A DNA stretch of 64,000 bases from Escherichia coli (GTDB lineage Bacteria > Pseudomonadota > Gammaproteobacteria > Enterobacterales > Enterobacteriaceae): NCBI RefSeq assembly GCF_016026235.1, contig NZ_CP065613.1. One strand, 5' to 3'. Below, piece after piece: positions 12,265-12,887 of the stretch. The notes under the pieces were generated by a model that was not told the origin of the DNA, ran no database searches, and worked only from the letters and a program-made list of their open reading frames with translations. Both the position numbers and the translations under genes were made by a program. The number at the start of each line of letters is the position of its first letter. Position 1 is the first letter of the stretch.

Positions 12265-12285
12265 GCCTCCTGCGGTATGAAGTGG

Positions 12286-12516
12286 TCAACAAAAACTGGC
12301 CACCGCGTTAGAGTTTTTCCAGTATCGGTTTTCTGATTCGTTTGGCGGTAACCCACCATTATATTCGTGCGGTCTTAGTGCGCTGTAATATCCAACGATA
12401 TAGTCCGTTATTGCGTGAGCTGCATCGCTGAAGCTTACATAGCCCGTCGCCGGCACCCATTCGTTCTTCAGACTCCTGAAGAAGCGCTCCATTGGGCTGT
12501 TATCCCAGCAGTTTCC
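12286..12516 (-). pseudogene. 3' fragment of an IS3-family transposase orfB (integrase-core C-terminus)
   Basis: Encodes '...[17 protein letters not shown]...[16 protein letters not shown]', the conserved tail of IS3-family OrfB; abuts a truncated IS1 at ~12517. Confidence 0.7.
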
Positions 12517-12887
12517 GCGCAGACGATGACGTCACTGCCCGGCTGTATGCGCGAGGTTACCGACTGCGGCCTGAGTTTTTTAAGTGACGTAAAATCGTGT
12601 TGAGGCCAACGCCCATAATGCGGGCTGTTGCCCGGCATCCAACGCCATTCATGGCCATATCAATGATTTTCTGGTGCGTACCGGGTTGAGAAGCGGTGTA
12701 AGTGAACTGCAGTTGCCATGTTTTACGGCAGTGAGAGCAGAGATAGCGCTGATGTCCGGCAGTGCTTTTGCCGTTACGCACCACCCCGTCAGTAGCTGAA
12801 CGGGAGGGACAGCTGATAGAAACAGAAGCCACTGGAGCACCTCAAAAACACCATCATACACTAAATCAGTAAGTTGGCAGCATCACC
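12517..12887 (-). mobile_element. Truncated IS1 copy (left ~370 bp, inverted relative to the IS1 at 4342..5109)
   Basis: IS1 left terminal repeat at 12865..12887; homology to IS1 stops abruptly near 12517; InsA frame 12557..12832 identical to the first copy. Confidence 0.85.
12557..12832 (-). CDS. insA: IS1 InsA (copy 2, 91 aa)
   Basis: Protein identical to the InsA at 4397..4672. Confidence 0.9.

Follow-up and report, generated by a model that had tools for sequence, protein, structure and literature searches.

Introduction

TgvAB, found on VPI-2 of Vibrio cholerae, is a GmrSD-like type IV restriction system that is embedded in a type I R-M locus (PMC11014532; 10.1101/2024.04.04.588119). 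Hhe, a DUF4011 helicase-nuclease represented in PADLOC and NCBIfam, is a known single-gene anti-phage system. Insertion sequences (ISs) can displace promoters, contribute to hybrid ones or activate genes by read-through, and IS911 carries an outward −35 element in its IRR (PMC9330008). Homologous recombination between IS copies is documented and frequent in E. coli (PMC5009759, PMC4173774), where inversions flanked by inverted homologous IS copies have been described from LTEE optical maps (PMC4173774) and from mutation-accumulation lines (PMC5009759).

Here we describe an E. coli locus at which remnants of two ISs lie directly upstream of a TgvAB-like gene pair and a third IS interrupts a neighbouring hhe gene. 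The window is the whole stretch of DNA that was analysed, 64,000 nt of contig NZ_CP065613.1 (assembly GCF_016026235.1), and it was compared with a population survey of 5,426 complete E. coli genomes. With a probability of about 80%, we regard the feature upstream of the pair as a decayed, nested insertion-sequence scar that has no function of its own, across which the downstream genes are transcribed by read-through and next to which an inversion is a potential event only.

Results and Discussion

From ~114 to 28490 the window, which is E. coli chromosome, holds a defence island at the yecA/leuZ hotspot (Table 1). A partial tRNA-Leu repeat bounds the island: positions 1-114 match 28491-28602 in direct orientation with 96.5% identity, and the repeat consists of the 3′ 56 nt of tRNA-Leu(taa) and the 56 bp downstream of it. 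These are att-type boundaries of an island of ~28 kb, and the repeat may extend leftwards past the window edge. Besides the three tRNAs, an Rfam scan of 1-30000 found nothing. The minus-strand genes are transcribed in the order hsdM, hsdS, YecA-like, hsdR, ygjP, then, after the scar, the DUF262+DUF7834 gene, the GmrSD-type gene and hhe.

Table 1. Features of the island that bear on the IS scar and the TgvAB-like pair (positions in the window).
Feature	Positions	Strand	Remarks
hhe, C-terminal part (helicase AAA_12 + MTES_1575/DUF559 nuclease)	2076-4341	-	PADLOC Hhe profile 1157-1911
Complete IS1, 768 bp	4342-5109	+	inside hhe; inverted relative to the IS1 fragment
hhe, N-terminal part (DUF4011 + start of SF1 helicase)	5110-8600	-	PADLOC Hhe profile 1-1161 of 1911; Pfam
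tgvB-like gene, GmrSD_N + GmrSD_C (DUF1524)	8775-10817	-	DGQQR at residue 79; 8-bp overlap with the upstream gene
tgvA-like gene, N-terminal DUF262 (GmrSD_N) + DUF7834	10810-12261	-	DGQQR at residue 75
Remaining native leader of the tgvA-like gene, 16 nt, TACCGCAGGAGGCATG	12262-12277	-	Shine-Dalgarno AGGAGG at 12271-12266
ISEc52-like (IS3 family, IS911-related) 3′ fragment, last ~240 bp	12278-12516	-	IRR tip at 12278
Deletion junction GGAAA (minus strand)	12512-12516	.	common to IS1 nt 372-376 and the IS3 element
IS1 5′ fragment, IS1 nt 376 to 1	12512-12887	-	IRL tip at 12887; insB′ truncated
ygjP/M48 metallopeptidase gene	12919-13674	-	stop codon 31 nt from the IS1 IRL tip
hsdR	13671-16958	-	co-directional, upstream of the scar
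YecA-like gene (UPF0149 + SEC-C motif)	17008-17691	-	between hsdS and hsdR; PADLOC candidate PDC-S12 end to end, 1e-97
hsdS	17688-18914	-
hsdM	18904-20427	-
Third IS1 copy, divergent isoform, 91% identical	25051-25818	-	direct relative to the fragment, inverted relative to the complete copy
tRNA-Leu, tRNA-Cys and tRNA-Gly genes	28547-28849

Several further elements lie in the island. An IS110-family element occupies 115-1870, between the partial tRNA-Leu repeat and the 3′ flank of hhe, with its transposase at 577-1773 (NCBIfam transpos_IS110, 7e-71); two copies of the 28-bp sequence CCCCGGTAGACGATCCTGCCCTATAGTT (1799-1826 and 1841-1868) mark the right edge of the element, and its junction with hhe at ~1800 is absent from every other complete E. 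coli genome. Between hsdM and an integrase-like gene (23643-24779) are two plus-strand ORFs of 411 aa (20731-21966) and 376 aa (22369-23499), neither of which has a match in Pfam, NCBIfam or PADLOC. Related strains carry an additional cold-shock-domain gene in the hsdS/hsdR interval, at the position of the YecA-like gene. The third IS1 copy adjoins a P4-type integrase gene (26287-27516) and, together with the IS1 fragment, brackets the type I R-M genes (~12.2 kb), which makes the two a weak deletion substrate.

The genes downstream of the scar had been described in the earlier note as a DUF262 operon. Judged by architecture, two of them are a TgvAB-like type IV restriction pair, which we liken by description to VC1767/VC1766: they are adjacent and co-directional, the first protein has DUF262 without DUF1524, the second has both domains, and DGQQR is found in each. 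Homologues of the first protein are widespread, and the pair of a DUF262+DUF7834 protein (~480 aa) and a GmrSD protein (~680 aa), with genes that overlap by 8 bp, is conserved in Vogesella, Enterobacter, Shewanella and Vibrio. The third gene after the pair varies among these relatives, being Cas3, SNF2, Cas_NE0113 or hsdR, and hhe is therefore an independent neighbour rather than a member of the operon. In two Vibrio contigs, a homologue with 63% identity is embedded as hsdM-hsdS-A-B-hsdR-ygjP (5238-16225), the arrangement behind the TgvAB name. The pair in the window likewise lies just downstream of hsdR-ygjP, but here the IS scar intervenes between it and the R-M genes, and hhe follows. In Vibrio, A follows the preceding gene without an intergenic gap; the window contains these same genes in another order, with the scar between.

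Tandem ATGs, at 12264 and 12261, stand at the start of the first gene of the pair. The second is the conserved start, which is also the choice of RefSeq, and its context reads ATGGAGAGC here and ATGGAAAGC in Vogesella. Upstream of it, the native leader aligns with the Vogesella upstream sequence ...taccgctacccaaggaggcgtgATGGAAAGC.

An IS3 end and an IS1 end joined in one scar

Nucleotide matches of 99-100% identify the two pieces upstream of the leader as known insertion sequences rather than chance resemblances. Over 234 bp, the IS3 piece shows 100% identity to ISEc52-annotated copies and ~94% identity to IS911. Strain TUM9868 has a complete element of 1,249 bp at the corresponding site, and the piece aligns with nt ~1016-1249 of it. 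It shares with ISEc52 and IS911 the IRR tip TGAAGTGG (longer form TGAAGTGGTCAACAAAAACTGGCCAC), the terminal inverted repeat starting with TG, the C-terminus of orfB and an IS911-matching outward TTGACC in the IRR, but here only the last ~240 bp are left; orfA, the programmed frameshift, the IRL and the 3-bp target duplication of the family are absent from the window. The orfB tail, an ORF at 12286-12492 that retains part of the DDE integrase core, matches rve_3 (5.8e-7) and rve_2 in Pfam, and it ends in a TGA (12288-12286) that falls within the outward TTGACC (12289-12284). An orfB tail of IS3 type upstream of the DUF262 genes had thus been recognized correctly from the sequence, although the element ends at 12278 and not at 12286, and the distance of about 20 bp given to the start codon is refined to 13 nt (ATG at 12264) or 16 nt (conserved ATG at 12261). 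The complete copy in TUM9868 has orfA and orfB and is flanked by TAT on one side and TAC on the other, without a 3-bp target duplication, which indicates that the original IS3 insertion event is not preserved. The idea that a composite IS3 transposon encloses the three genes was rejected, as no second ISEc52-like copy occurs in the window or in the loci examined.

The IS1 piece comprises nt 1-376 of the element at 99.2% identity, with the IRL preserved and insA still open (12557-12832; Pfam hits to InsA domains at 4.7e-31 and 1.5e-19). It lacks both the IRR and insB′ past nt 376, so that it is unable to move on its own. Its InsA carries C11R (codon 12800-12802), a change of the second Cys of the N-terminal CxxC zinc-ribbon motif; Cys11 is kept in the complete IS1 and in the third IS1 copy.

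The earlier note placed the join between the two pieces at ~12517, and the join is indeed there, with an ambiguity over 12512-12516. When the scar was compared with both IS1 and the complete IS3 element, the shared GGAAA proved to sit within an imperfect match of 11/13 positions, as is typical of a microhomology deletion junction. The megablast end coordinates had suggested a microhomology of 13 bp, which base-by-base comparison reduced to 5 perfect bp within the 11/13 match. The resulting chimera is 610 bp long and has the IRL of IS1 at one end and the IRR of IS3 at the other.

An old scar in a variable IS boundary

The scar with its flanks (901 bp) was found at ~100% identity in 164 genomes, or in 159 when a longer query was used; it is old, and ~160 genomes inherited it. 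RefSeq lists the two pieces in the carrier genomes as pseudogenes, both partial, under the names 'integrase core domain' and 'IS1-like transposase'; the locus is thus already known as annotation in ~160 public genomes, and it is a case of ordinary decay of ISs within a defence island.

The 5′ end of the downstream gene is present in 254 genomes, and a 201-bp query across the junction of this gene with IS3 was fully covered in all of them (254/254), which indicates that the IS3 right end lies at the same base in every E. coli copy. What lies to the left of this junction varies. In 19-20 genomes a complete ISEc52-like element abuts IS1 nt 1-544; in another state, which has a different chromosomal setting, IS3 nt 816-1249 adjoin other DNA; and in single cases ~103 bp or 74 bp of the IS3 end are kept. 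The IS1 fragment differs from the IS1(1-544) of TUM9868 at ~4 of 379 positions, and the IRL is flanked by ygjP here, by a DUF2787 gene in T28R, and by a hypothetical gene and tRNA-Leu in TUM9868. These differences and unlike flanks imply that further events, probably IS1-IS1 recombination, are needed to derive the scar from a TUM9868-like state.

In E. coli LD93-1 (NZ_CP047662.1, 6003-6612) the 610-bp chimera occurs alone, with an integrase gene at its IRR tip and yehD at its IRL tip; the TgvAB-like and hhe genes do not adjoin it. Transposition of the chimera as a unit was rejected for this strain, since its flanks carry no target duplication, and the copy may have arisen by successive recombinations between IS homologies.

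A recent IS1 insertion splits hhe

The complete IS1 shows every hallmark of its family: a length of 768 bp, terminal inverted repeats, InsA (4397-4672) and InsB (4591-5094; Pfam DDE_Tnp_IS1, 5.9e-78) with an A6C frameshift motif, and, on either side (4333-4341 and 5110-5118), a direct 9-bp duplication, AGTAAATCG, without mismatch. The perfect duplication identifies it as a simple transposition. The insertion into hhe was found in 0 of the 5,426 complete E. coli genomes, which makes it recent and private to this genome; it is the only genome-specific novelty at the locus.

In other strains hhe is a single intact gene of 5,736 bp. Here, the two fragments jointly span the 1,911-position Hhe profile but are split by IS1, and neither ORF gives a full-length match; the N-terminal piece scores 1369.8 bits in NCBIfam, under the cut-off of 2000. 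The N-terminal reading frame continues into IS1 as far as a stop at 5088 (ORF 5088-8600), and the C-terminal ORF spans 2076-4355. The gene is presumably inactivated. E. coli MRSN346595 (15572-19922), which is otherwise similar to the window, has an intact hhe and an hsdR that is split by IS903B; in the same island, different strains have lost different defence genes to insertion sequences.

The new IS1 also creates an inverted repeat. As had been noticed from the sequence, the fragment is inverted relative to the complete IS1 and near-identical to it over ~370 bp: 4342-4717 pairs with 12512-12887 over 376 nt at 99.2% identity, with three mismatches (IS1 nt 86, 127 and 262) that leave perfect runs of 85, 40, 134 and 114 bp. 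The unique DNA between the two copies measures 7,402 bp (5110-12511). Judged from these repeats, RecA-dependent inversion of 4718-12511 is possible. A crossover would be confined to IS1 nt 1-376, and inverted genes would therefore keep the same 610 bp upstream; a change would come only farther away, where the antisense strand of the hhe 3′ fragment would take the place of hsdR-ygjP.

Transcription of the gene pair

The non-IS DNA upstream of the pair measures 417 bp in Vogesella, 269 bp in Enterobacter and 171 bp in Shewanella, whereas 16 nt are left in E. coli. With IS3 abutting this leader in 254/254 genomes, all carriers have physically lost the native upstream region, and the suspicion that IS-derived sequence has taken the place of the native promoter region is thereby borne out as far as the loss of that region is concerned.

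Consensus scans for promoters and terminators covered the scar, the native upstream regions of Enterobacter and Vogesella, and the tgvB-hhe gap. Their counts were not above those of shuffled sequence and are uninformative, except that they recovered the known position of PinsA: a PinsA-like site lies in the IRL of the IS1 fragment, with a −35 at 12880-12875 and a −10 at 12858-12853. The scan found no terminator-like site on the minus strand from the ygjP stop to the start codon (12918 to 12262). The IS1 fragment, the IS3 fragment, the gene pair, hsdR and ygjP all point in the same direction, and everything from hsdM to hhe is on the minus strand. PinsA of IS1 is a weak promoter that is repressed by InsA. 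The most economical hypothesis, and the most likely one given this layout, is that the pair has no dedicated promoter and is transcribed by read-through from the InsA-repressible IS1 promoter, from hsdR-ygjP, or from both. IS1 insertions are classically polar, and Rho could reduce read-through across ~280 nt of untranslated scar.

Weighing the alternatives

An IS end that directly precedes an intact Shine-Dalgarno sequence and an ORF, with the transposase genes pointing the same way, resembles described cases of IS-mediated promoter displacement and hybrid promoters (PMC9330008). The right end of IS3 might accordingly be a selected hybrid promoter, in which the outward −35 of the IRR and the flank drive the TgvAB-like pair. 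TTGACC at 12289-12284 matches the outward −35 of IS911 type, and the proposal would explain why at least five IS3 truncation states all retain the last 74 bp or more. The geometry, however, does not suit a promoter: the sole −10 candidate at a spacing of 16-18 bp, CATGAT at 12265-12260, overlaps both ATGs, so that a transcript would begin within the coding region and contain neither a start codon nor a Shine-Dalgarno sequence. Retention of the IS3 end is moreover expected anyway, since deeper deletions destroy the gene and most genomes share their states by descent. Here, unlike in the described cases, two different IS fragments are stacked and the hybrid geometry is not usable, and we consider a selected promoter unlikely. 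Read-through into the pair across a functionless scar is the reading that we retain.

The inverted IS1 copies invite another proposal, in which they form an invertible switch or a composite transposon (IS1, 7.4 kb, IS1 fragment, with the IRLs outward) that mobilises or regulates the TgvAB-like genes. Two outward IS1 IRL ends and one intact transposase source are available, a shared 376 bp at 99.2% identity gives RecA more than enough homology, and IS-mediated inversions are known in E. coli (PMC4173774). The complete IS1 is, however, a simple insertion with a duplication of its own that flanks the single element rather than the unit, and the outer flanks of the supposed unit, AGTAAATCG and ACAAATGAG, are not a duplication; the 8.5-kb unit therefore did not arrive as a composite transposon. 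No invertase gene adjoins the segment, and inversion would leave the DNA immediately upstream of the genes as it is. Compared with the documented E. coli inversions, only 376 bp are common here, one partner is truncated, and the isomer junction was found in 0/5,426 genomes, as was the IS1 insertion in hhe. The lack of isomers follows from the second IS1 being private to this genome, and the intact 9-bp duplication around that copy indicates that the assembled sequence is the parental orientation. What stands of the proposed inversion of 7.4 kb is thus a real RecA substrate, whereas a pair of alternating orientations finds no counterpart in the genomes surveyed; a dedicated switch or transposon is very improbable. 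An assembly artefact, produced by collapsed or misjoined IS1 repeats, would have to be considered for any sequence as highly repeated as IS1, which has a median of ~12 places per E. coli genome, all the more as IS1 in hhe occurs in no other genome. But the scar and both its flanks recur base for base in ~160 independent complete genomes, the 9-bp duplication is perfect, and the halves of hhe abut exactly in the profile (1161/1157) once the duplication is removed, which leaves this explanation with a next to negligible probability.

For the nested scar, we therefore favour a history in three steps. An ISEc52-like element came to lie such that its right end stands 16 nt ahead of the TgvAB-like start codon, which cuts the pair off from its former upstream DNA. 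In one lineage, starting from a state close to that of TUM9868 with IS1(1-544), a complete IS3 element and then the pair, an internal deletion of ~1.2 kb would have fused IS1 nt 376 with IS3 nt ~1016 through GGAAA and produced the chimera that ~160 genomes inherited. In this genome only, a complete IS1 later entered hhe, presumably inactivating that gene and placing a second copy of the 376-bp sequence in inverted orientation 7.4 kb from the first.

A more far-reaching interpretation, which we offer tentatively and regard as doubtful, is that the TgvAB-like pair of E. coli never has its own promoter and relies on IS-derived or read-through expression in all 254 genomes. In the scar lineage, expression might then be tied to the InsA-repressed PinsA and to the type I R-M genes, such that IS accidents would have recreated a Vibrio-like, R-M-embedded arrangement, and the private IS1 might place the pair within a segment of 8.5 kb, bounded by IS1, that is able to invert or move.

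Conclusion

The significance of the locus beyond annotation is small. For defence-system prediction, this genome should be scored as Hhe-negative, and expression of its TgvAB-like pair should be treated as uncertain. What the locus offers is a clean, datable case of IS remodelling at the yecA/leuZ hotspot, in which a sequence of wear can be read: IS3 removed the upstream region of the pair in every E. coli carrier, stepwise deletions eroded the ISs in turn, and a fresh IS1 hit hhe in this strain.
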